A stretch of 64,000 nt of DNA from Dimargaris cristalligena (lineage: Eukaryota), in assembly GCA_003614675.1 (NCBI GenBank), contig ML002208.1, positions 1-64,000 on the forward strand. The letters are read 5' to 3'. The notes under the pieces are model-generated. The model searched no databases. It saw only the letters and a list, made by a program, of their open reading frames with translations, and was not told the DNA's origin. Positions 6,820 through 57,302 of this stretch are shown here, in pieces (position 1 is the first letter of the stretch; every line of letters starts with the position of its first letter). Both the position numbers and the translations under genes were made by a program.

Positions 6820-7019
6820 CGCCATCTAGTCCTCGGCGGTACAAATAATTATCACCTACTTCATTCCGTTGCATTTCGACTCCTTCCGCACTTATCCTTG
6901 GAACTATCGGCTGAATAGCTTCCCTTGTGAACCGCCTAGTATACTCCACCCATTATTATCCAATTGTTTGTCACTCGTAGACCTTTTCTCTCCCACCCAC
7001 AATATCGCCACATTCCAAA

Positions 7020-8267
7020 ATGCAGTTCAGCAAGATCACCATCACCTCCTTCCTCCTGGCCGCTCTAGCCGTGTCCACCACTTTCGCCGATGTGTCCACC
7101 AACGGCCAGTGTGACGAGAACACCTCCTGCCCCGACGGCTCCTGCTGCTCCTGGTGGGGATACTGCGGTACTTCTGACCTTCACTGCGGGGACAGCTGTA
7201 TCTTCCAGTGCCCCAGCGGTCGCAACGCCACCTCCCTCGAGGAAGGCCAGACCCGCTCGACCGACGGCCGCTGTTCCGAGAACGTGCTGTGCCCTCCCAG
7301 CAACTGCTGCTCCAAGTGGGGCTGGTGCGGTAGCACCACCGCTCACTGCGGCGCCGGCTGCCAGTTCCAGTGCAACGATGGCTCCGGCGGTCACGGTGCT
7401 GGTAACTGCACAGAGAACAACTCCGGCATGGCCACCATCACCAACAGCGACGGTGCCGTCGTAGTGGTGCCCACTGGCAGCGGTTCGACCGGTGCCCCCG
7501 TCTCAACTATCAGCTCCGCCACCGGTTCCCACTCCGGCTCCGCCTCGACCACCGGCTCCCAGTCTGGTTCGGCCTCGGCCACTAGTTCCCACTCCGGTTC
7601 CGCCACCAGCTCCCACTCCGGTTCGGCCACTAGCTCCCACTCCGGATCCGCCACTGGCTCGCAGTCCAGTTCCGGCTCCGCCTCGGCCACCGGCTCTGAA
7701 TCCGAATCCGGCTCCGCCTCAGCCACTGGCTCTGAGTCTGAGTCCGGCTCCGCCTCGGCCACGGGTTCTGAATCTACGTCTGGCTCCGCCTCGGCCACTG
7801 GCTCTGAATCCCAGTCCGGCTCGGAAGCGTCCACTGAAACCACCACTGTCATCATCGGCGAATCCTCGTCCGGCGCGGAATCCGAATCCGCTACTGGCGT
7901 CGTCACCGAATCTTCCACCGAACTCGTCACTGCCTCCCCGACCGGTGTCGTCACCGAATCCTCCACCAAGCTCGTCACCGAGACCGGCGCCGGTGGCGGT
8001 CGCGAGACCATCACCCGATCGACCACGGAATCCTCGACCCACTTGGCCACCCTGTCCTCTTCGGAGACCACGACTGCCTCCACCACCCAGGTCGTTACCC
8101 AATCTTCCGAGGCTACCGTCACCACCACTCCTCCCGTGATTGTGACCGAGTCCGCTACCGACATCATCACCCAGTCTGCCACGGACGCCGAAACCGAGAC
8201 CCACAGCGAAATCGTGATCACTTCCGTGGTTGTGGTCACTGGTACCGCCACGGTCACCAGTACCTAA
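7020..8267 (+). CDS. Secreted protein with two hevein-like chitin-binding (CBM18) domains and a long Ser/Thr/Gly/Glu-rich stalk
   Basis: Signal peptide MQFSKITITSFLLAALAVSTTFA. Two 8-Cys modules with CCSWWGYCG and CCSKWGWCG. Strong C-ending codon bias, low-complexity S/T tail, single exon. Confidence 0.92.
   Translation: MQFSKITITSFLLAALAVSTTFADVSTNGQCDENTSCPDGSCCSWWGYCGTSDLHCGDSCIFQCPSGRNATSLEEGQTRSTDGRCSENVLCPPSNCCSKWGWCGSTTAHCGAGCQFQCNDGSGGHGAGNCTENNSGMATITNSDGAVVVVPTGSGSTGAPVSTISSATGSHSGSASTTGSQSGSASATSSHSGSATSSHSGSATSSHSGSATGSQSSSGSASATGSESESGSASATGSESESGSASATGSESTSGSASATGSESQSGSEASTETTTVIIGESSSGAESESATGVVTESSTELVTASPTGVVTESSTKLVTETGAGGGRETITRSTTESSTHLATLSSSETTTASTTQVVTQSSEATVTTTPPVIVTESATDIITQSATDAETETHSEIVITSVVVVTGTATVTST
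7524..7823 (+). repeat. Intragenic coding tandem repeats (24-30-bp SHSGSAT-type units, then 4 x 36-bp SGSASATGSESx units at 7671-7814)
   Basis: Directly visible repeated tccggctccgcctcggccac units with mostly synonymous variation. Confidence 0.85.
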
Positions 8268-16200: not shown

Positions 16201-17334
16201 CAATCGTTGGCCATTGCTCTCCCACATCGGTAACGTTCCTGGTTCATGGAGGAAAAGGCAACCGTAATGGTGCGATCCAGGCACTGACTTCGTATGTGGA
16301 GAATAGTATTGAAAAGTAATCGAGAGGCACGCCATATCATCATTCCCCACTCACCCGCATCCAGATAAGCCTAACTACCCCTGCCCCGGCCTGAGGTTAA
16401 TAAAGCACCGCAACGCGAACATCGGTAGACACATGGATTGGGCACCAGGAGACCAGAGCGGGACGGAATCGACTTACCAAGTTAGGCGGCGGAGGGGAGG
16501 GGAGTACTATGAAAGTGCAACCGGTACGGTTTCAAAGCTAAAGAATATGGAGTAAAAGAGGAGGATCCCCTACGTCCAGCTACTTATAGCGCGTGTTTTT
16601 TTTCCAGTTCTTGAACTCTCCTAGCCGTCTCATCCAAACCGTTCCAAAGAAAAATATATTAGTAGGAGGAGAGTTGTACGTTTTTTTTCCTAGTTTGCAG
16701 CCAATGGGGTGAGTAGCTCAGAAGAGCCTATCCACCACGGGGTCACGTGATTTCGATATCATATCAGGAAGTTTACAACACCCCCCCTCTCCCCTACTCT
16801 GCCCAAGCTAAGAAAGCTACCCCGAGTGAGGTAATAATCCCCCAGAGGATTCAGCCCAAACAGCCTGTTATCCATGATTATATGGATGAGTGGCATCCAT
16901 AGCAGGTCCCTAACCAAGGAATAGGCCTTCAGTACTCGACTATGCATCGGATCAAAGAAAGGAAAGAGTTTAACGATCACTAAATTACCGGACTGGGTCG
17001 GATAAAATAAACGGCTATAGATTGGGGGGGGGGGTTATGAATTTATAGACATTTTAATTTGTAGGAGTGTCAGTGCGACCTTAGCCAAGGCAGCAAAAGG
17101 AGGAACTAACGGTCGAGATATCGAAAAGTTGGAAATCCAAAACAGGGGATTCAGCAGCAGCGGGGGGTTGATAATGTCGATAAAGGTAGACTGTCCTGTC
17201 CTCCCCCCTTTCACGCCACAGTCTGGGCATCAGGGTGTCAAATAGAGTAGTGTCGAGTCGAAAAGAACCAACCACAGGATAGATAAATCAGACAAGCGCA
17301 TTATATTCGCACTAATTAGAATGGCTAGATCCAT

Positions 17335-18870
17335 TTACAATTCATCGTGCACCTTGGCCTCTTCGTCAGCCACGTGGGCTTCTTCGATCACTTCCTCCTT
17401 GGTGGCTTCCTCGACTTCCTTCTTGGCCTTGGGTTCTTCCTGGGCGGGCTCGATATGAGTACTGAGGAATTCCTCGAACGACTCCAGCGACCGGTCGCCC
17501 TTGTATTCCACGACATCATTGCTGTTCCGCTTGACCAGTTTAATGGTGGGGAAACCCTGGATCTGGAAATCGGCGGGGCGGACCGGGACGTCGTTGTCCT
17601 GGCCGTCAATCTTGGCAATGACAATCGAGTCGTGCTCGGCGTACTTCTCACCCAGTTCTTCCCAGATGGGGGCCAGCTTCTTGCAGTGGCCGCACCAGGG
17701 GGCGTAGAATTCGATCAGGACGTCCTTGGTGGGGTCCATAACGATCTTCTCGAATTCGTCAGCCACCACAACCTTAACGGGACCGTTGTTGTCTTCGGGA
17801 ATCGGACCGGACTTGATGAAGGGCTTCACTTCACCGGCGACGAACTTGGAGAAGAAGTCGTCGGCCTCGGCGGCCGTGACGTTCTTGCTCTGATCCATGG
17901 GGTACTTGAGGCCATTGGTCTCCTGGATACCCACACAAGGCCATTGCTCCTTCAGATTCAGGTGCTCGGCCTGGCGGGCGTATGTGTTAGCGTCGGTCAG
18001 GACAAAGTTGACCTTGCCGCGGAACTTGCGGGCGATGGGCACGAACACGTCGGTCATTTCCTTCTTCATCTCGTCGTCAATGTAGAAGACGAAGGCCAGG
18101 GGGAGCTTGGTGCTCATGTAGGCCTGATAGTTCTCCTGGCCAATGTCATCCAGCAGAGGCAGGGAGTTGACCTCGATAAACTTCTTCAGTTCGGCGGAGT
18201 CAGCCAGTTGAGCGGCGTCCTTGAGAATGAAGGGCTCGGGGGTATCGCGGTTGAAGATGGCGACGGCGGGGGCCACCAGGGACTGGGCCTTGGCCAGGGC
18301 AGAATCCAGCACGGAGCCGAAGGTGAGGGTGTTGCGCAGGCTCTGGGCCACGCCCTTGAAGGCGGCGTACAACTCGGACTCGGCATCGTCAAAGATACCA
18401 ATGATGACGGACTTTTCGCTGTCCTTGAACTTGGCGAAGGTATCTTCCAAAAGTTCAGTCACGGCGGGGCGCTTCTGGCGCTTCATGTAGGCGGTGATAT
18501 CGTCGGCGGTACGGCCACCGTTGTAGGGGCTGGGCTCCAGCTTGGAGAAAACTTTGAGAGTGGGGAAGCCCTCGACGCCAAAGCGGGCGCACAGGTCCTT
18601 CTCATCGTCACAGTTGACCTTGGCCAGGGGCACGTTTTCGGCCTTGAGTTCGGTGGCGGAGGTCTCGTAGTGGGGGGCCAGCTGCTTACAGTAGCCGCAC
18701 CAGGGGGCGTAGAATTCAATGAGGGAAATGTCCCAATCAGACACAGTGGAGTCGAAGTTCTTTTCGGTCAATACCACAACGTCAGAGGCAGTGTCGGCCA
18801 GGGCACGCTGGCTAAGCAGACTGGTGGCCAGGACTCCGAGGAGGGCGAAACGGGCGGTGCTGAGCTTCAT
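17335..18870 (-). CDS. PDI1: Protein disulfide isomerase (a-b-b'-a'), ER-resident
   Basis: Two thioredoxin sites EFYAPWCGYCK and EFYAPWCGHCK, GFPT cis-Pro loops, acidic tail and C-terminal HDEL. The true start is probably ATG 18870 (MKLSTARFALLGVLA signal peptide) rather than the GTG at 18996. Confidence 0.97.
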   Translation of the reverse strand: MKLSTARFALLGVLATSLLSQRALADTASDVVVLTEKNFDSTVSDWDISLIEFYAPWCGYCKQLAPHYETSATELKAENVPLAKVNCDDEKDLCARFGVEGFPTLKVFSKLEPSPYNGGRTADDITAYMKRQKRPAVTELLEDTFAKFKDSEKSVIIGIFDDAESELYAAFKGVAQSLRNTLTFGSVLDSALAKAQSLVAPAVAIFNRDTPEPFILKDAAQLADSAELKKFIEVNSLPLLDDIGQENYQAYMSTKLPLAFVFYIDDEMKKEMTDVFVPIARKFRGKVNFVLTDANTYARQAEHLNLKEQWPCVGIQETNGLKYPMDQSKNVTAAEADDFFSKFVAGEVKPFIKSGPIPEDNNGPVKVVVADEFEKIVMDPTKDVLIEFYAPWCGHCKKLAPIWEELGEKYAEHDSIVIAKIDGQDNDVPVRPADFQIQGFPTIKLVKRNSNDVVEYKGDRSLESFEEFLSTHIEPAQEEPKAKKEVEEATKEEVIEEAHVADEEAKVHDEL

Positions 18871-18997
18871 GATGCGGAGTTTAGAAAAGGAGGAGTTGGG
18901 ATGAGATGGGATGAGGAAGGATGAAACAAGAGGGACGAAGGCAGAGACGAGGGATGAGGGGAGGTAGGAAAGGAGGGGAGAGGGAGGGAAAGGCACT

Positions 18998-23625: not shown

Positions 23626-26600
23626 CTATGCTGTTTCTGTAGGGGTGACTACCGAATCAATCTCCATGGATTCAGACTGGCCTTGTGGCGCGGCCGGTTG
23701 AGCCGAGGTGGGCTCAGGCGACAATGATTCGTGGTTACTGGGCTCAGTAACTGTGAATAGCGACGGGAATTGGTCTTGTACTAAGAGGGCCACAATTGCC
23801 GCCCTGACCTTATCAGCCAGAGTGGAGGAGTTGAAAATATCCTCGGGTAGCTCAGGGGAGCTAGACGGAAGAAGCTGGGATAGATCCAACGATTGTAGAA
23901 TTGCAAAACACCGCCAAGTATATATCACGGGTTAGACAGGGTCTAGGATAGAGACCAGGTGATAACGGATGGGGCCACACCCCCTCCTCATATTAACTGG
24001 TTTACGTGCTGGCGGAGTCCTCGGGCGATTGGGGCGGAGATGGCCGATCCGACCCAGGAAGACTACTTCGAGTTTCGTTCGAGGATCCATCACATCGCAC
24101 AAGGCCATTCTACGAACAACATCGTGAATTAATAGAGAATCAATGATATACTTACAGTGGGGTTGGTGTGATGTTGGTGGTGGGTGAGGACAAACCGGCA
24201 AAAGACGAAGCGGATGATCAGCTGACGTAGCAAATGGTCTGACAAAAACTTCTTGATCCCTTTATCAGTGACAGCATCCGTGAGTAAAGTGTAGATATGC
24301 TGCTGGATGGCCTCAACGGCATCCAGAGCCGATTTCCAAGCGGCGGGTTCTTGGCGGTTAACCCCCGTGAGGGAAGCCAGGCCGAGGGCGGGAGAGTGGA
24401 GGAATAGCGTGAAGAGATTCCCCAGCTGGTGGGTGTCTTTCTGCGACGACTCGGTGGGTGACATAAGGCAAATGAACGGCTGGTTAAAGATACGGGGTAT
24501 ATTTTTGAAGACTACGCTGTTCGTGCTCTCGACAATCAAAAACATGGATTTCCGAGTGAACGGGATGAGGTCGGCGGGATGGAGACAGTTGGACACCTGG
24601 GCCACATCGCTGCCGTCGCCCGGCTTATCCGACGAGGATTTCGAGCTGCGGGTGGCAATACCCCCCACGAACCCGTTCTCCAGAGCCGCATCGGGCTTAG
24701 TAACCTTAACCCCAGGCGCGGATAGGTAGAGCAGGAGGGCGGTTTGGTCACTGGTATCTTTGAAGGCCTGGCTGATGTTCTGCATGAGGTTGCTATAGGT
24801 CGGGCGGAAGAGGAGGTGCTTGTGGGGGTTCACGTGGCGGAGTGCACCCACCTCTTTAGCCGCTCCATGATTGGGCGGATCGGAGAAGATGTCGCTGGGC
24901 TGGTTACTGGTCATTATAATGCTCTGGGCTGCAGTAAGAGCCGGATGGTCATCGGCGGAAGTCTGCTTGCTCAGCGTGGAGTTCAGCCGGGCCCGGACTG
25001 CGGCGCTGGCCTTGGCCATACACGGCTCAAACTCCAGGGCCTGAGTCATACGGTAGACGTCCACAGTGAGTTCGGAGAATTTGAATTGGCTGGAATAGCC
25101 CCCCACCAGGACCGCCTCTTGGAGGTGGAATCGCGGGGGCTCTTTCGGGGAAACGGGGGGCTCGCTGGCACGTAGGGGAACCGACAATAGTTGGCCCGTG
25201 GGGGAACGGGGAATGACTTTTCGCTCGGCCTGGATAATTGGGTTCGGTGGTAGATTAAGTTGTAGATTACCCCCGTGGCACCGAGTTAGATCAAACCATA
25301 TAGAGAAACGCGGCGGTGGCGGTTGGTATTAGATTAGGGGATACCGGAATTAATAAAGATGGGGATATAGTGGCGCAAGGGGGTTAAACTATAAATCACA
25401 AAAAAAAAACCATCCCAGCAAACTCAAATCACTCAAATCCGGCCCGTATTGAGCAATGAATGGTATAATGTAAGGACGTCTACAAGGGGTATATAGCATA
25501 CCTCAAGGAAAGTGGAAATTTCCTGCATCACCAGCTGCCATTCTTTGGAATCGACGGGGCGGAATTTGCGGGAGTACTGGTCAATCATGGCTTGGGACTC
25601 AGTGAGCAGCTGTAGGGCCAGTTCGTCGTCATTCAGAAGCACACAGGCCACGATGAAGCGGGCGTAGAATCGGATCTTCTTGACCAACAGGGCGGGGCTA
25701 TTCGTGCAGTAGATGGGAGAAGCGAGGATTATTTAGACATGTGCGGTAGTGGGGGAAGGTTGGCTTTAGCAAGACTGGTAAAAAGGGGTGAATTACTAAG
25801 CACGCATCAGGTGGGGCGAGGGCGAGTGTTCCCCCTCTGGCTTACTTTTTAGCGTCGGTGATGTCCCGGAAATAGGCCCGTTCCCGGATGGCGTAGTAAA
25901 AAATGTAAGACTCGAGAAGATAGTTGGTTTCGCTGGTGCGCAGGTAGTAGTGGTAATACAGTTGGCCGATTTTAGAGGCAATCTCACCAATCTGCCACCG
26001 CTTCAGGCCGAAATTATCACTGCGTTCCAGTACCGCGCGGTACTGCTGTTGGTAGCGCCAAATCCTGGTGTATGTTTCAAATGTTTTCTTGAAGTAGTCC
26101 TGCCAGGGCCGGGTGCCGAGCGGAGTGAATTCCTTCAGGCCTGCGAACTGCTGATGACTCTTTTCGAGCATATACTCGAAGCCATCGCGGATTTTCTTGG
26201 GATCCAAAGCGAGCTTCTTGTTCGCATCAGGATTGGGGTTGGTCGTGGCGAAGTGGTTTCCGGTGGCCCCTGCGGCAGCGGTTGCGGCGCCGGCATGGGG
26301 GGAGGTCGTTTTAGACTGGGTCGCTGACGTGGAGTTGGTTGGGGCGATGGTATCAAAAGTCGACGGCGGGGTGGTTGCATGCGAGTGATTAGGGGAGGTG
26401 GTGGTGGTCACGGGTTCGGCTAGAGTGGCTGCGGCAACGAGGTCACCCAAGCTGCTGCCGTACTTACGCGGGGGAGCCGGTATGTCGAACGAGGCGTGGG
26501 AGGTCAAGGGAACGGACGGGCAGTCCGGGGGGCTATGGGACCGACTCTGCTCCTGCGTCGGGGGGTTGAGGCCGTTTTTTTGGCGTTTTTGGTAAGACGT

Positions 26601-26801
26601 GGCCAAAGAGTCAGACACGGGGTCGTGGGTCGGGGAGCTGGTGGACGAGGCGGCGGGGGTGGTAGGTCCGTGGTGGGGGGGCTGATCGGAGGGGGTGACG
26701 TAAGAGCTTGCGACGACGTCCGGATCCGGGAGGACAGCCGCGCCGGCGGTAGCGGCTACCGGTTCGTCGTCGGTGTGGAACAGCTGCTTTCGCTTGGACA
26801 T
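23626..26801 (-). CDS. SCAI: SCAI-like protein (suppressor of cancer cell invasion family), 4 exons
   Basis: Exons 26801-25846, 25697-25502, 25229-24156, 23874-23626 splice in frame. Motifs GLKRWQIGEIASKIGQLYYHYYLRTSE, RFYARFIVAC, KFSELTVDVYRM, NPHKHLLFRPT and LHPADLIPFTRK match SCAI as recalled. Confidence 0.9.
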
Positions 26802-27269
26802 GGTCGCTGGAGAGAAACGAATATGTGCGGGCCCAGGTGGTTCTTATTTCTATTAGAAAACAGGGGAGGTATGGAAAGGGCTAGTGGAGGCGAATGCGGC
26901 GCAATCAAATAGAGTAGATGCAACAGTCTGAGGGGAATGCACACTAAAGGGAAACCTCGTCTTGTGGTGAACACCGAGGGTGAAGCAGACAGGGTGTATG
27001 TATGGGGGGGAAGGGGAGAGAGAGAAGAGGCGAGGAGAGGCAATGGTGGTATTTAGAACCCTGACTGACGACCGCCCGCCCTATTGGACCAGGAGTCGCC
27101 GCAGTCTGGTCTGAGGGGTTGTTGGATATATGCTGCTAGCTCACTCCACCCTATTTCACTGCAACCACCACTGAGCCTTCTTGGCCCACACAACCTTTCT
27201 TATAATACTAAACTGCGCCAACCATCTTCAGCGACTATCTCTCTCCGCTCAATTAATTTTTAAGCCACG

Positions 27270-34531: not shown

Positions 34532-37500
34532 TTACACATGGGACTCGGTCGAGTAAGAGGATGACGGGACCGAAGCATGCAAAGAAGGTTGGAGGCATGC
34601 GGAGAAGTTAATGGTCGAGGCCGGAGACGGTACGAGGCCGGACTCGTAGCAGGACACCGAGGCCAGGGCCGAGTCGGCCGGGGGGCTACTGCCAAGGTGG
34701 ATGCCGGATAGCGAGGCGGAGGGGGCGCTAGGCGAAGGCACCGCCGAGATGGGCGTAATCGGGGACGACTGCAGAGGGGACGGAAGAGCCGAGACACCGA
34801 CGTAACCACCGGCGGGCGAGGGTAGGGGGCCCTGCTGCTGCAGAATCTTTTCGACCTTGGTAATCAAATGCTTACCGTAAGTAAACTTCTTGAGGCTTTG
34901 CAAATGGGGACGAATCTTCATAACCAAGAGGTCGCGCAGGTCCCCATCGACAGCATCCAGCATCTTCTGGACCACGTAGTTGGCGTACTGATCCTTCATC
35001 ATGATGGTGAGGGCGTTGGTCCCATCAGGCCGGGTGGCGATGACTTCCTCGATCAGAAGCTGACGCTGATCAGCCGAACCAAAGGTCACGCAACGCTCAA
35101 CCACATTACTGGCGAACTTGTGCTTGGATAGTATCAGCACATTGCCACGCACCTTACTAACCACCATAGCGCGGTCCTCTGGTTTGCTATGTTCTAGAAC
35201 ATGTTGAATGACGTAGTTGCCATACTGGTCCTGGACCAGGGATGAGGTGAAGCGGTGGAGCTCGTCGAGGAGGGCCTTGGTCTGACCCTCCGGGCAGTAT
35301 TCGAACATACGCTGAATCACGCGGCAGCCGTAGGGGTGGGTGGCTAGGGCATAGACCTGTCCGTGGAAGGCCTGGATGATGAACTGGATGTGTTCGGAGG
35401 GCACTCGCTCGATGGCCTTCTGAATTACGTGATTACCGTTCTGATCCTTGACGCACTTGAGGATGCTGCCGTCCAGCTCCTGTACCATGAGGGCCTGCTG
35501 TTCAGTCAGGACATGCTCCAGGGCTTTTTGGACAACCCGACAGCCGTACATCTGCAGGGAAAGAGACAGGACGTGGGATTCCATCTGCTTGGCCAGAAGG
35601 TACTTTTGGCCCTGGTTACCGTGTTCGAAGAACTTCTGGATGACGTAGTTACCGAATACGTCGGTCATCAGCTGGAGGGCATTGGGCAAAATCTCTTCAA
35701 AAACCAAACGCTTCTCCTCGCTAGTGGCCGTCTCCAACTTCTGCTGGATGAAGCGGGAGCCGTGTTGGTCACCGCTGAATTCGACCATGCTGCCCACAAT
35801 ATCCTTCAGCTCGTACTTCTTGTTCTTATTGTTGCGGAAATCCTCCAGAAGGGGACTGCGAATGCTCTGGGTGGGGTCCATGCTAAGCAGACCCATCACG
35901 CTGCCGAGCGGGGAAGGGTGGCCGTGGCCCAGGGCATGCAGATGGGCCGAAGTATAGGGGTTGGGGGAAAGGGTGGCAAGGTGACCATGCTGATCCAGGT
36001 ACCGACGGGAGCCGGGCGGGGTGGGGAGGCCAGCGGAGGTTAGAGGAGACGACGGTGCGGTATTATAGGCCGACATGAGACTGGCCGGGCTGGCATTGCT
36101 GCCCAGGTACTCGGAGGAATGCTGGCGCAACAGGAGAGTCTCGCGGGCAGCCAGGGTGGCCAAGTAGGCCTGGGCGGCAGGGGAGGTCTGGGCCAGATGG
36201 TGATGCGGATGGTGAACCAGGTGGTGGTTGGGGCCTGTCAAGGGGGAGGGGGGATAGGCGTTGGGGTTGTTGGTGGAGAAGGGCTGGGCGGAATGGGGAC
36301 GGAAGTACTTGCGGTCGGAGTAGGACTGGGAGCGAAGGGCAGCGGTGTTCAAGGTTAGGCCGTGATCCAACAGTCCATTAGCCGAGCCTGGGTGGTTGGC
36401 CCGCTTAGCCGCCAGGTAGGAGGCGGAGGGTAGGCCAAGTTCGGGGCCGTGAGTCATATAGGGGCCGACAAGCCCATGATCGAGGCCGCCAGTGGGGGAA
36501 AGAATGGGTCCGGTCGAGCCATCGGGGCCGTAGAGTCCACCACCCACGCTCACTTTGAGTCCATCGGAATACACGGGCGAGTCGACCCGGTCCAAAAGAG
36601 AGGACACGCCCCCCTTATTCATAGAGGGAAGGGTGGTGAAGTTGCGGGAGTTGTAGAAAGAAAGGGATGGGGCGCTACTCTTGGGGGGATAGCCACCACG
36701 CAGTCCCGCGTTATGATAGGCCTGACCATCGTGTCCCATGCTCAGTCCATGAATACCCAGGGAACCACCAGCGGATACGGGAATATCATTTTCCAGCGAG
36801 GTGTGGTGGAGGGAGTGAACCAGGTCGGCGTACTCGTCTTTAACGGAGGTGGCTAAGTTGGAACGGGAAGTAGTGGGCTGGCGGGGAGCGAGGTGACCAG
36901 GGGGTGTAGATAAGGCCCGTTGGGGGACGTCCAAGCGAGCGCGAAGCCAGGCTGAAGCGGGGTTGGCGGCACCCAGGTGAGAGGCCACCGGGTCGTCATC
37001 ACCCCCGTCGAATAAAGAATTGACCATGGATTGGACGCTAAGTCCCGCCTCGTCGGACTCGCCCTGGTGACCGCCGGAGCCATGGTTGCCCGTAAGAACG
37101 GAGGAGAGCCGGTGACGACGGCTTTCGTGCAAAAAGTCACTCAAGTTCAGCCCGTCTGTTGAATGGTCCTCGGCAGTGGCAGTGGGGAAAGTACCGTGGC
37201 CATGCGGGGGAAATCCAGCGGAGCGGCAGCGAGCACTACCGACCACGGTGGGGGACGGGGTGCGGGTATAATCAGCGGGAAAGCTCTCAACGAACGGGCG
37301 GCGGGCCTTATCAACGCCCATGGATACGCCAGGAGTGGTTGGAGCAAACAGACTGGCAATCTGGTGGTCGGCGATCTCCTTATGGGCGTCGGATGACAAG
37401 TTGAAGGCATCTGAGGCCAGGGGGTTGCGCTGAGCATTGTGGAAACGGGGTTGGAGAAGATAGTTGGGGTGATCAAGATCGTCGCCGCCTCGGAAGGGAG

Positions 37501-37963
37501 ACGACGAGTCGGTCCGTCTAACGTCGGACGAGCCCCACATGGGCCAATTAGAGTCCAGGCGGTGCAAGGTAGCGGAGGTCGGCTCGGGCCGGTTGAGAGC
37601 ATTACCGAAGCCCAGCTCAAGGGCCCCGGAACGCGACGATAAGTCGTAGGTGTCATTGCCATCAGGGCGAGCAGGCGGGGCACTAATGGGGCGGTGATTC
37701 ATATCCATCAGGGAAGCCATATGGTCGGACCCATTAAGTCCGTGTAGGCCATTACCATTCTGGGGCGAAGGAGACGAGGAAATGGGGGAGATTCAAGCAA
37801 ATAGGAGTGTGTGTGTGTGTATAGGGGAACATGTTAGCCAAAGACGAGAGGGGAGAGAGATTAGCGGAGAATATGGGTGAAGTGGATAGAGATGATTGTT
37901 AGATGGCGAATTACTTACCGACTGAAGGGAGTAGGGATGAACCCGCTGGGACTGGGCGGCCAT
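34532..37963 (-). CDS. Pumilio/PUF RNA-binding protein (PUM/Puf3 class), 2 exons
   Basis: Exon 1 37963-37919 ([15 protein letters not shown], donor gtaagt) and exon 2 37759-34532 are in frame. Eight PUF repeats with recognition motifs SRFIQ, NYVIQ, CRVVQ, NHVIQ, CRVIQ, NYVIQ, SNVVE and NYVVQ, ending in KFTYGKHL. Long disordered N-terminus. Confidence 0.96.
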
Positions 37964-56167: not shown

Positions 56168-57151
56168 TTACGGTTGATTCCCGTACATAATACGTATGCC
56201 GAGGAGGGCTTGTCCCTTACGCTGTTGCAGAATTTTGGTCAACCGGGCGGCGCTGGTGGTCGGTGATGGCACGCTGTGTTCCCGAACGATACGGTTAGCA
56301 ATATCCGCTGGGTTATCGTGCTCGAAGACCTTGACTCGGTGTAGCGCCCGGTTGTGTAGCTCTACGTCCGCGGTGAACAGGTGGCGGCCGCGACGGTGTG
56401 AGGATGGGGGTTGGCCTGAATGATGATGGGAAGGCATTGGATAGGAGCCCGAAAGCGGGGGGAGACCCAGGGGTAGTGGGTTGGTAGCCACCGCCCGGAT
56501 GGGTGCGGCAGAATAGGTCAGGGTGGGGGTGGAGCTGGGTACTCGCGCCAGAGGAACGGCTTTCAAGGCGGGGACACTGGAGGTGGGATGCGTAGCGGAG
56601 TCGCTAGCCAAAGGGGGTTTGCTGGAGGGGACGAATGGTCGTACCAGCCCCAGCTTGGTGGATTTGGGATACGAGGGGCTATTCCGGGCCGGTAAGCTAT
56701 TCGGGAGAGTTTCAAATAGGGAGGCGGTCGGGGGTAGTTCCATGGGCGGGTCCAGCGGCGGAGTATCGGGTAGTCGAGGGAAACTCACTACCGAAGACTC
56801 GGGGTAGGGCGAATAAGGAGGGGCGTCAAACGAAGTGGCCGAACCCGGCGGAGCGTCGCCCGCGGTAAAAGCCGGCCGGGGTGTCGGGGTGGTAGGAGCT
56901 GACTGCTTGGCAGAACCGGGCGGGGGAGGCGGTTGGACCGAAGCCTTCAATGCGGCTATGTTTTTAACCACGGAGGGGTCATTGGGGTCGCGAATGATAA
57001 TGGTCTGGGAGGTACGCTTGATGAGGGTCGGCTTGAATGCGGGGGCGGCGGCCGAGAGGAACGAGAAGGCCGGGGGCGACTGGTCGGTCAATAAACTCGG
57101 ACGGGCCTTGGGACCTAGGGCCCCGGGCGGAGTTTGGGTGGTTTGAACCAT
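56168..57151 (-). CDS. Pro-rich orphan protein with N-terminal PABP-interaction-like motifs and a small C-terminal globular domain
   Basis: 327-aa ORF starting at accATGG. LSAAAPAFKP and KRTSQTIIIRDPN lie near the N-terminus; the C-terminus is LFTADVELH...RVKVFEHDNPADIANRIVREH...LTKILQQRK. Confidence 0.8.
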   Translation of the reverse strand: MVQTTQTPPGALGPKARPSLLTDQSPPAFSFLSAAAPAFKPTLIKRTSQTIIIRDPNDPSVVKNIAALKASVQPPPPPGSAKQSAPTTPTPRPAFTAGDAPPGSATSFDAPPYSPYPESSVVSFPRLPDTPPLDPPMELPPTASLFETLPNSLPARNSPSYPKSTKLGLVRPFVPSSKPPLASDSATHPTSSVPALKAVPLARVPSSTPTLTYSAAPIRAVATNPLPLGLPPLSGSYPMPSHHHSGQPPSSHRRGRHLFTADVELHNRALHRVKVFEHDNPADIANRIVREHSVPSPTTSAARLTKILQQRKGQALLGIRIMYGNQP

Positions 57152-57237: not shown

Positions 57238-57302
57238 AGCGTGGGGGTTAGACTGGAGAATGCTGGAAGCGTGGGGGTTAGACCGGAGAATGCTGGAAGC
57301 GT
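57238..57302. repeat. 30-bp tandem duplication (about 2.2 copies, 1 mismatch)
   Basis: gtgggggttagac(t/c)ggagaatgctggaagc at 57241-57270 and 57271-57300. Confidence 0.9.

Follow-up and report, generated by a model that had tools for sequence, protein, structure and literature searches.

A Dimargaritaceae-restricted protein of Dimargaris cristalligena with a conserved PAM2-type motif, an unconserved resemblance to eIF4G and a C-terminal domain resembling the CCT-like fold

The analysed DNA of Dimargaris cristalligena, a stretch of 64 kb referred to here as the window, harbors a single-exon gene on its minus strand. The gene and the features delineated within its product are as follows.

56168..57151 (stop codon included), minus strand: single-exon gene for a 327-aa protein, from the ORF listing and its translation
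57029..57064, minus strand: candidate PAM2 motif, residues 30-41 (SFLSAAAPAFKP), from invariant columns, regular-expression matching and profile searches
56981..57019, minus strand: eIF4G-like stretch, residues 45-57 (KRTSQTIIIRDPN), from a 7/11 match to the human motif; Dimargaris-specific
56756..56797, minus strand: conserved linear-motif island 1, residues 119-132 (SSVVSFPRLPDTPP), from column conservation
56714..56734, minus strand: conserved linear-motif island 2, residues 140-146 (PPTASLF), with P140, P141, L145 and F146 invariant
56177..56389, minus strand: C-terminal folded domain, residues 255-325, from AlphaFold2 models, conservation and structural matches

The open reading frame runs from an ATG to a stop codon and is preceded by an in-frame stop located nine codons upstream of the ATG. 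Its product differs from the hypothetical protein KAJ1994724.1 of Dimargaris cristalligena at only one of 327 residues (P238L). Orthologs of 200-272 aa were found in Dispira parvispora and Tieghemiomyces parasiticus, with the alignment covering both the amino- and carboxy-termini, and a partial sequence of 171 aa from Dispira simplex aligned over the N-terminal part. As both termini are common to three independently annotated orthologs, the idea that the ORF is a fragment of a larger gene is disfavoured. The ORF at 56168..57151 is a real and complete gene for a largely disordered protein restricted to the Dimargaritaceae.

NCBI places three genera in the Dimargaritaceae, namely Dimargaris, Dispira and Tieghemiomyces, and the relatives found originate only from these. 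A word-index search, in which 8000 candidates were scored, returned at E≤0.01 only the protein itself and that of Dispira parvispora. An exhaustive phmmer search of 1.84 billion representatives yielded three proteins at E≤0.001, one of them being the query, a profile of alignment A1 three proteins at E≤1, and a profile of the C-terminal domain run against longer proteins three proteins at E≤10, all of them from the Dimargaritaceae. No Pfam family was matched by the whole 327-aa protein at E≤10. The term 'orphan', used for this protein in the preliminary description, is too strong in that a small family exists, though it is confined to the Dimargaritaceae. This family of fungi is early-diverging and mycoparasitic, living on moulds.

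Retranslation of positions 56981-57064 of the minus strand gave exactly the residues 30-57 (SFLSAAAPAFKPTLIKRTSQTIIIRDPN) from which the preliminary description had proposed two adjacent PABP-binding motifs. The first of these, LSAAAPAFKP, does fit the PAM2 pattern L[NS]xxAxxFxP, with the key residues L32 (position 3), S33 (position 4), A36 (position 7), F39 (position 10) and P41 (position 12). The determinants of PAM2 are given as Leu 3, Ala 7, Phe 10, Pro 12 and Asn or, less often, Ser at position 4 (PMC2854688), and the consensus as LNxxAxEFxP (PMC7356810). The pattern L[NS]xxAxxFxP occurred a single time in the six-frame translation of the window, and shuffling of the 327-aa protein produced it in 519 of 200,000 trials; composition-matched shuffles of the family proteins produced it in 179 to 519 per 200,000, depending on the protein.

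In the ortholog check proposed in the preliminary description, the motif stood out as a conserved island within the disordered N-terminal region of all relatives retrieved (6/6 sequences from three genera). Of the 12 PAM2 columns seven are invariant, whereas only 11 of the 99 columns on either side are (residues 1-29 and 42-111; Fisher p = 4.5e-4). The invariant positions include L32, S33, A36, F39 and P41, and L32, A36 and F39 are found in all six family sequences. The region is devoid of secondary structure in the model, with pLDDT values of 44-53 (10-residue block means, residues 21-50). Position 5 is occupied by Ala in Dimargaris and Dispira simplex, by Val in Dispira parvispora and by Pro in Tieghemiomyces, while position 9 is Ala in Dimargaris. 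Pro, Val or Thr is usual at position 5, where a Pro-to-Ala change in Paip2 lowers affinity 5-fold and does not abolish binding, and Glu is preferred at position 9 (PMC2854688). Owing to the Ala residues at positions 5 and 9, the Dimargaris site may be a weak one.

A scan with the Pfam PAM2 model (PF07145), proposed in the preliminary description, brought the Tieghemiomyces ortholog near the cut-off but gave no match for the window protein. Residues 15-30 of the Tieghemiomyces protein scored 19.5 bits (E 7.5e-4) when a 41-aa piece was searched and 15.9 bits (E 0.01) when the whole protein was searched, the gathering cut-off being 20 bits. At E≤10, the model matched neither the window protein nor its 40-aa peptide nor the protein of Dispira parvispora. 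A profile built from four motif segments and searched against 177,635 distinct PDB sequences ranked the PAM2 peptide of PAIP1 first (1jh4_B, E 0.013; the peptide is also present in 3ntw) and also recovered the 'superPAM2' peptide 8smo_B (E 0.31). Four sequences of phage head-decoration proteins (E 0.047-0.13) were placed between these two; they score through a chance LSAKAPA match without the Phe, and hence the discrimination of the profile is modest. Searched singly at E≤10, the 40-aa and 30-aa Dimargaris peptides matched no PDB sequence.

The known PAM2-bearing ligands of the MLLE (PABC) domain include PAIP1, PAIP2, ataxin-2, eRF3 and PAN3, as well as the fungal proteins Upa1 and Upa2 of Ustilago maydis. 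Paip2 is a small PABP inhibitor with both PAM1 and PAM2, and known MLLE competitors such as Paip2 are small and mostly disordered. The Dimargaris motif resembles known PAM2s in being a 12-residue motif within a disordered region and in having Leu3, Ser4, Ala7, Phe10 and Pro12; it differs from the PAM2 partner proteins in that no homology exists outside the motif. Similar to Paip2, the Dimargaris protein is small and largely disordered with a PAM2, but it lacks homology to Paip2, has a different order of motifs and a folded C-terminal domain, and its proposed second site is unconserved. The PAM2 core of human PAIP1 is reported as LSVNAPEFYP (PMC12102759); LSPNAPEFRP of Tieghemiomyces shares 8 of the 10 core residues with it, and Ser at position 4, as in S33, is likewise found in PAIP1. 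The MLLE of fungal Pab1 has been described to bind PAM2 canonically, and the substitutions L132A, F139A and P141A in Ustilago Upa1 each abolish binding (PMC11572963). Upa1 and the Dimargaris motif have an identical L(+7)F(+2)P spacing.

Three residues (T42-L43-I44) separate the PAM2 from the eIF4G-like stretch, as had been noted earlier. The N-terminal PABP-binding motif of eIF4G, PAM1 (human residues 174-184; PDB 4F02), binds RRM2 of PABP (PMC12709193). For human eIF4G1 this motif is given as KRERKTIRIRD, the mutation of which ablates PABP binding (bioRxiv 10.64898/2026.04.06.716749), and KRTSQTIIIRD is identical to it at 7 of 11 positions, a degree of likeness for which PAM1 membership has no set threshold. 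The human peptide of the preliminary description ends in a further 'PN', and the string IRIRDPN was not found by full-text literature search. As a conserved island, the eIF4G-like stretch did not hold up: KRxxxTIxIRD is present in two of six sequences, both from Dimargaris, and absent from the four sequences of Dispira and Tieghemiomyces, where the aligned residues read KGRRTRPGES (Dispira) and TFGPRSRNTT (Tieghemiomyces). None of the 16 alignment columns over residues 42-57 is invariant. With no invariant column and the pattern in only two of six sequences, the stretch bears no sign of purifying selection. It is disordered in the model, with pLDDT below 50.

The absence of a MIF4G domain (Pfam, E≤10) and of a YxxxxL-phi motif (0/6 family sequences), remarked upon in the preliminary description, was confirmed; in lacking both the MIF4G domain and the eIF4E site the protein differs from eIF4G. 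A relaxed eIF4E-binding site was considered in YPESSVV, which is present in four of the six sequences, but the Tyr is missing in Tieghemiomyces and the candidate was rejected. Judged from the sequences, KRTSQTIIIRDPN is a Dimargaris-specific, unconserved and probably coincidental resemblance. The earlier proposal of a bivalent PABP binder or eIF4G mimic fails the ortholog check at its second site.

Two further islands lie between the N-terminal motifs and the C-terminal domain. The most conserved stretch of the entire protein is found in island 1, where 10 of the 12 columns over residues 121-132 are invariant; this island (VVSFPRLPxTPP) holds an invariant Thr-Pro pair, T130-P131, and its region is disordered in both the Dimargaris and the Tieghemiomyces models. 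Within island 2, the Dimargaris model has a one-residue strand bridge at residue 143 that is missing from the Tieghemiomyces model. Docking of PPTASLF onto the C-terminal domain was considered on account of this bridge and of fold alignments that start at residues 141-145; such docking is not claimed, since the Tieghemiomyces model has no such contact.

The C-terminal domain is a small unit of predicted β-β-α-α topology. In the AlphaFold2 model of the Dimargaris protein, the block means of pLDDT over residues 251-320 are 80-95, and the elements comprise strands at 257-264 and 270-276 and helices at 281-292 and 297-323. The Tieghemiomyces model, which was built on alignment A4 with the sequence P0005 left out, showed the same β-hairpin and two helices, confidently folded. 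Twenty-seven of the 71 columns of the domain are invariant. The top structural match in the models of both orthologs was WNK1 (5g3q_B), with Z 7.0, rmsd 2.5, 68 aligned residues and 19% identity in one model and Z 7.2, rmsd 2.0, 66 aligned residues and 21% identity in the other; Z values below 8 are, according to the structure-comparison tool, common for models without true relatives. Also among the top eight matches were WNK2 CCT-like 1 (6fbk_A, Z 5.6 and 6.5 in the two models), WNK3 CCT1 and SPAK CCT, and the top-scoring chains include 5o2c_A (Z 5.2 and 5.8) and 7o86_A (Z 5.1 and 5.8). Unrelated β-β-α-α units, namely the VCPIP1 VCPID, SMARCB1 repeats and PFU, scored within 1-2 Z units of the WNK matches. 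Among the clusters whose structures resemble the model of this protein in the ESM Atlas are those labelled C2orf68, WNK2-like and NRBP, and the Pfam family CCTL2_WNK was present in 68% of the members of the WNK2-like cluster. C2orf68, WNK and NRBP belong to the CCT/CCT-like set of a preprint (bioRxiv 10.64898/2026.04.15.718729).

Several other comparisons of the domain were negative. Foldseek gave no match in the PDB at E≤0.001 (best E 0.38), and the best score in the feature comparison of the ESM Atlas was 0.82, under the 0.9 level for a lead. No Pfam family was matched at E≤10 by any of the four C-terminal domain sequences, OSR1_C (PF12202), CCTL2_WNK (PF24889) and UPF0561 included. The profile of the domain retrieved five weak and unrelated matches from the PDB sequences (bL20, RILP, uS17, PTPS and IE1) and no CCT chain. 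The C-terminal domain, listed as unknown in the preliminary description, is modeled as a small folded unit resembling the CCT-like domains of WNK and SPAK. The Z values of this fold match are moderate, and a link at the sequence level is absent.

CCT-like systems comprise OSR1/SPAK, WNK1-4 and NRBP1, along with C2ORF68 and FERRY3, whose CCT-like domains are putative. Their fold consists of an antiparallel sheet of three to four strands and two helices, while both models described here have two strands and two helices; the WNK CCT domains are stated to have three strands and that of OSR1 four (bioRxiv 10.64898/2026.04.15.718729). The Dimargaris protein is like the CCT-like proteins in that its C-terminus forms a small globular unit attached to a long disordered stretch, and the conserved acidic residues E277 and D279, which follow strand 2, lie at the site to which the preprint assigns the electrostatic anchor of the CCT-bound motif. 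In CCT domains, strand 2 and helix 1 flank the groove that receives RFxV/I-type (basic-aromatic) peptides; no RFxV or RxFxV is present in cis in any of the six family sequences. Kinase context is lacking in the Dimargaris protein.

The explanation that we favour, and consider about evenly balanced between right and wrong, is that the protein is a lineage-restricted PAM2 adaptor on Pab1-bound mRNPs and not an eIF4G mimic. The gene, the range of its family, the conserved motif and the modeled C-terminal fold are observations, while we infer that the motif binds MLLE, that the C-terminal domain binds a peptide and that the protein serves as an adaptor. If known complexes are a guide, the two hydrophobic pockets of the MLLE would receive L32 and F39, with P41 packing against the domain. 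Docking of the PAM2 would bring the rest of the protein to poly(A) tails, the tethered part being VVSFPRLPxTPP, PPxxxLF and the β-β-α-α C-terminal domain, and the latter, CCT-like as it is modeled, would probably bind a putative peptide partner. The same PAM2 evidence would serve equally if the motif occupied the MLLE of Pab1 as a plain competitor displacing Pan3 or eRF3-type ligands, with the C-terminal domain needed only for stability or dimerisation, and the small size and mostly disordered nature of the protein are like those of known MLLE competitors. Such a role is hard to square with the three further conserved elements, i.e., residues 121-132 (10/12 columns invariant), PPxxxLF and the C-terminal domain (27/71), and we regard it as clearly improbable. 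The LSxxAPxFxP island may instead be conserved for another partner or function, its PAM2 likeness being coincidental. The HMM evidence is all sub-threshold (19.5 vs 20 bits) and comes from one ortholog only, the window's own protein has neither a Pfam PAM2 nor a PDB match, the Dimargaris copy departs from the preferred residues at positions 5 and 9, and motifs of five fixed residues would be expected to arise by chance at proteome scale. Against coincidence stands the invariance of positions 3, 4, 7, 10 and 12 in three genera whose flanking residues have diverged. In addition, the PDB sequence ranked first by the motif profile is a PAM2 peptide whose structure was determined in complex with the C-terminal domain of PABP, and the least degenerate family member, that of Tieghemiomyces, comes close to the PAIP1 core. 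We consider a coincidental likeness rather unlikely.

The bivalent arrangement, in which the PAM2 and the adjacent KRTSQTIIIRDPN would clamp PABP through MLLE and RRM2 and, in Dimargaris if not elsewhere, compete with eIF4G much as Paip2 does, draws on the 7/11 identity to KRERKTIRIRD, a motif whose mutation is reported to ablate PABP binding, and on the position of this disordered stretch, three residues past the conserved PAM2. It has to contend with the occurrence of KRxxxTIxIRD in two of six sequences, with the 0/16 invariant columns over residues 42-57, and with pLDDT below 50 and zero matches of the peptide in the PDB. It also presupposes a human-type motif in Dimargaris eIF4G, and a 7/11 match to one of many short motifs would be expected occasionally when many windows are scanned. 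The clamp is, in our estimation, very improbable. Equally slender are the prospects of its evolutionary version, in which the TIxIRD element, similar to that of human eIF4G, would have been born de novo in Dimargaris after the split from Dispira and Tieghemiomyces, three residues downstream of an ancestral PAM2, giving a two-site Pab1 clamp competing with eIF4G; if true, the protein would be a translation regulator of recent and convergent origin, with a CCT-like peptide-binding domain attached. The eIF4G-mimic claim is not supported.

A full-text literature search retrieved no paper pairing PAM2 with CCT-like, C2orf68 or UPF0561. Should the motif of the proposed adaptor bind Pab1, this early-diverging family of mycoparasites would have a PABP partner specific to its lineage, and the protein would exemplify the combination of a PAM2 with a domain of CCT-like fold. 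Proposals of CCT-like domains beyond the WNK pathway are very recent, e.g., in FERRY3, a component of an mRNA-transport complex (bioRxiv 10.64898/2026.04.15.718729). A CCT-like domain tethered to poly(A), if true, would give one more, modest hint of a role for this fold in mRNP biology.

The ORF at positions 56168–57151 (minus strand) comprises 327 codons from ATG to stop, with an in-frame stop 9 codons upstream of the ATG, and the annotated 327-aa hypothetical protein of Dimargaris cristalligena differs from it by one residue (P238L). Translation of positions 56981–57064 gave residues 30–57 as SFLSAAAPAFKPTLIKRTSQTIIIRDPN, identical to the peptide read in the preliminary description, which had proposed a bivalent poly(A)-binding protein (PABP) binder or eIF4G mimic carrying adjacent PAM2-like and eIF4G-like motifs. 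The observation was confirmed, and its interpretation is upheld in part. A 30-bp unit, AGCGTGGGGGTTAGACCGGAGAATGCTGGA, is repeated at 57238–57302 (2.2 copies, 97% match), 87–151 bases upstream of the ATG, presumably within the promoter or the 5′ leader.

Relatives were sought by a word-index search, by phmmer run exhaustively against 1.84 billion cluster representatives, and by two profile searches, and all four placed them in one fungal family only. The word-index search retrieved P0002 of Dispira parvispora (272 aa, E 8.2e-25, 36% identity, 91% of the query covered). At E ≤ 0.001, phmmer returned three proteins, namely, the query, P0003 of Tieghemiomyces parasiticus (200 aa, E 4.3e-18), and the partial P0004 of Dispira simplex (171 aa, E 5.5e-4), and the profile searches added no relatives to this combined set. 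Dimargaris, Dispira, and Tieghemiomyces are exactly the genera of Dimargaritaceae in the NCBI taxonomy, the sole family of Dimargaritales. Since relatives were found in these three genera only, the protein belongs to a Dimargaritaceae-restricted gene family, for which the earlier label “orphan” was too strict. The full-length orthologs begin 15–35 residues ahead of the PAM2-like motif and have a common tail, ...LG(T/I)RI(M/L)xG; this common start region and tail speak for a complete single-exon gene rather than a fragment of a larger gene. P0005, a near-identical copy of P0003 in T. parasiticus, lies on a different contig (109,669 and 90,739 bases for the two); 4 of 200 aligned residues differ, and its annotation has a 43-residue N-terminal extension absent in other family members. 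P0005 could represent an allele, a recently arisen duplicate, or a protein whose start was annotated too far upstream.

The window is eukaryotic DNA, and its other long ORFs also include kinesin motor, homeodomain, and choline kinase domains, besides the following:

6981–8264, plus strand, 428-codon open frame with two Chitin_bind_1 (chitin-recognition) domains
17329–18921, plus strand, 531-codon frame without a Pfam match
17338–18996, minus strand, protein disulfide isomerase, open frame of more than 500 codons (Thioredoxin match, E 1.8e-58)
24132–25328, minus strand, C-terminal part of SCAI (Pfam SCAI profile positions 202–528)
25845–26843, minus strand, N-terminal part of SCAI (profile positions 2–105)
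34535–37792, minus strand, PUF gene candidate, eight Pumilio (PUF) repeats (E 1.8e-85) in an open frame of 1086 codons

The PUF frame represents a second mRNA-binding regulator in the window, with no evident link to the 327-aa protein. The two SCAI frames presumably form a single SCAI-family gene interrupted by intron(s). The two frames starting at 17329 and 17338 each exceed 500 codons and cover nearly the same stretch on opposite strands; the plus-strand frame is probably a non-coding antisense frame. The chitin-recognition frame could be of interest, the fungus being a mycoparasite.

The AlphaFold2 model of the 327-aa protein (four-sequence alignment) had a mean pLDDT of 56, with order confined to residues 255–325 (block pLDDT 80–95); residues 1–254 contain 22% Pro and 14% Ser. 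The C-terminal domain is modeled as two strands (257–264 and 270–276) and two helices (281–292 and 297–323), and the Tieghemiomyces ortholog model showed the same ββαα unit. Conservation was unevenly distributed.

Invariant alignment columns along the protein (counted where three or more sequences are present)
Residues 1–29: 2/29
Residues 30–41 (PAM2-like): 7/12
Residues 42–57 (eIF4G-like): 0/16
Residues 58–111: 9/54
Residues 112–146: 16/35
Residues 147–254: 9/108
Residues 255–325 (C-terminal domain): 27/71

Four conserved elements were recognized, namely, the PAM2-like motif, a VVSFPRLPxTPP island, a PPxxxLF island, and the folded C-terminal domain. The VVSFPRLPxTPP island (residues 119–132; window 56756–56797, minus strand), which has FPxLP at its core and contains an invariant Thr-Pro, exceeds every other part of the protein in conservation, PAM2 included; 10 of 12 columns are invariant in residues 121–132 (VVSFPRLPDTPP). 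We take it to resemble proline-directed kinase sites and EVH1-type ligands.

None of the four C-terminal domain sequences matched any Pfam family at E ≤ 10, and a domain profile searched against PDB sequences gave five weak matches, all unrelated. The fold was compared with 48,161 chains in an exhaustive VIA search.

Structural matches of the Dimargaris C-terminal domain model
5g3q_B, WNK1 (rank 1): Z 7.0, rmsd 2.5, 68 aligned, 19% identity
6fbk_A, WNK2 CCT-like 1 with RFXV peptide: Z 5.6
9mpr_G, VCPIP1 VCPID: Z 5.4
3l3f_X, Doa1 PFU-PUL: Z 5.2
5o2c_A, WNK3 CCT1: Z 5.2
6kag_A, SMARCB1: Z 5.2
7o86_A, SPAK CCT: Z 5.1

The independent Tieghemiomyces model similarly matched 5g3q_B (Z 7.2, rmsd 2.0, 66 aligned, 21% identity), 6fbk_A (Z 6.5), 5o2c_A (5.8), and 7o86_A (5.8), and Foldseek also ranked 5g3q first, with E only 0.38. 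Look-alike clusters of the ESM Atlas model of the protein were labeled C2orf68 (UPF0561), WNK2-like (Pfam CCTL2_WNK), PFU, and NRBP. This is the same company as the CCT-like set of a preprint, which names C2ORF68, FERRY3, and SMARCB1 as candidates beside the known WNK, SPAK/OSR1, and NRBP and describes CCT domains as peptide-binding modules with acidic anchors and a groove between strand 2 and the next helix (bioRxiv 10.64898/2026.04.15.718729). In the Dimargaritaceae family, an invariant E277-H278-D279 directly follows strand 2. The modeled domain is designated only as “CCT-like in fold,” and not as a CCT family member, because Z is below 8, a range common for models without true relatives according to the search tool’s own note, because two strands are modeled as against three in WNK CCTs, and because other small ββαα units lie within 1–2 Z units of the CCT matches.

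PAM2 is a 12-residue motif with Leu or another hydrophobic residue at position 3, Asn “or less often serine” at 4, Pro, Val, or Thr at 5, invariant Ala at 7, a preference for Glu at 9, invariant Phe at 10 (“the single most important residue”), and usually Pro at 12 (PMC2854688); the canonical consensus is LNxxAxEFxP (PMC7356810). S30, L32, S33, A36, P37, F39, and P41 are invariant in the family; therefore, every PAM2-defining position is fixed while the flanks drift (7/12 versus 11/99 columns; Fisher p 4.5e-4, related sequences being treated as independent). The pattern L[NS]xxAxxFxP was present in all six family sequences, occurred only once when the window was translated in all six frames, and arose by chance in 179 to 519 of 200,000 shuffles per family protein. 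The PAM2-like claim for LSAAAPAFKP, the Dimargaris copy, was thereby sustained as a conserved island. The copies in Dispira are LSVKAPAFKP and LSAKAPAFKP, and that in Tieghemiomyces, LSPNAPEFRP, is identical at 8 of 10 residues to the PAIP1 core LSVNAPEFYP, contained in a peptide ligand of the PABPC1 PABC domain (PMC12102759). When a profile built from the four aligned motif segments was searched against 177,635 distinct PDB sequences, seven matched at E ≤ 10, and the best (E 0.013) was the PAM2 peptide of PAIP1 (1jh4_B, likewise present in 3ntw). Four phage head-decoration sequences came next (E 0.047–0.13), with a chance LSAKAPA match lacking the Phe, then the designed “superPAM2” peptide 8smo_B (E 0.31) and, last, one unrelated protein (E 1.3). 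In the Pfam PAM2 scan, Tieghemiomyces residues 15–30 scored 19.5 bits (E 7.5e-4, 41-aa piece) and the whole protein 15.9 bits, both slightly below the 20-bit cut-off, and the Dimargaris and Dispira parvispora proteins gave no match at E ≤ 10. Fungal Pab1 MLLE binds PAM2 canonically, and L132A, F139A, and P141A in Ustilago maydis Upa1 each abolish this binding (PMC11572963); these residues and L32/F39/P41 are spaced alike, as L(+7)F(+2)P.

The PABP-binding motif of human eIF4G1 is KRERKTIRIRD (residues 174–184), whose replacement by alanine ablates binding (bioRxiv 10.64898/2026.04.06.716749); a review places this PAM1 at residues 166–200 and names PABP RRM2 as its partner (PMC12709193). KRTSQTIIIRD is identical to it at 7 of 11 positions. 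The resemblance is real, but it is confined to two of the six family sequences, both from Dimargaris; the alignment shows KGRRTRPGES in Dispira and TFGPRSRNTT in Tieghemiomyces at this position. The stretch, devoid of invariant columns, is without structure in the AlphaFold2 model, and PDB sequence searches with the Dimargaris peptide gave zero matches. As it is not conserved in orthologs, the eIF4G half of the earlier hypothesis fails by the refutation criterion of the preliminary description itself; the stretch could conceivably be a recent gain specific to the Dimargaris lineage. Pfam found no MIF4G domain, and the YxxxxL-phi eIF4E-binding motif occurred in none of the six sequences, as had been described. 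The odds of an eIF4G mimic are low.

On the favored reading, the protein would act as an adaptor on Pab1 mRNPs via predicted PAM2–MLLE docking. PAM2 would dock it on the MLLE domain of Pab1 at poly(A) tails, where other factors would be recruited by, or would regulate, the conserved motifs of its middle region and its C-terminal domain of peptide-binding type. The main mechanistic alternative is a pure MLLE competitor, which would share the docking step. A non-PABP role of the motif is possible; Ala at PAM2 positions 5 and 9 is the weak point of the Dimargaris copy, and all HMM evidence for PAM2 is sub-threshold, against which stand the family-wide fixation of the motif and the PAIP1 match. 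A full-text literature search found no published account of PAM2 joined to a CCT-like fold, C2orf68, or UPF0561. PAM2-bearing PABP partners are already known as a heterogeneous class, and the 327-aa protein is plausibly a new, lineage-restricted PAM2-bearing partner of PABP.
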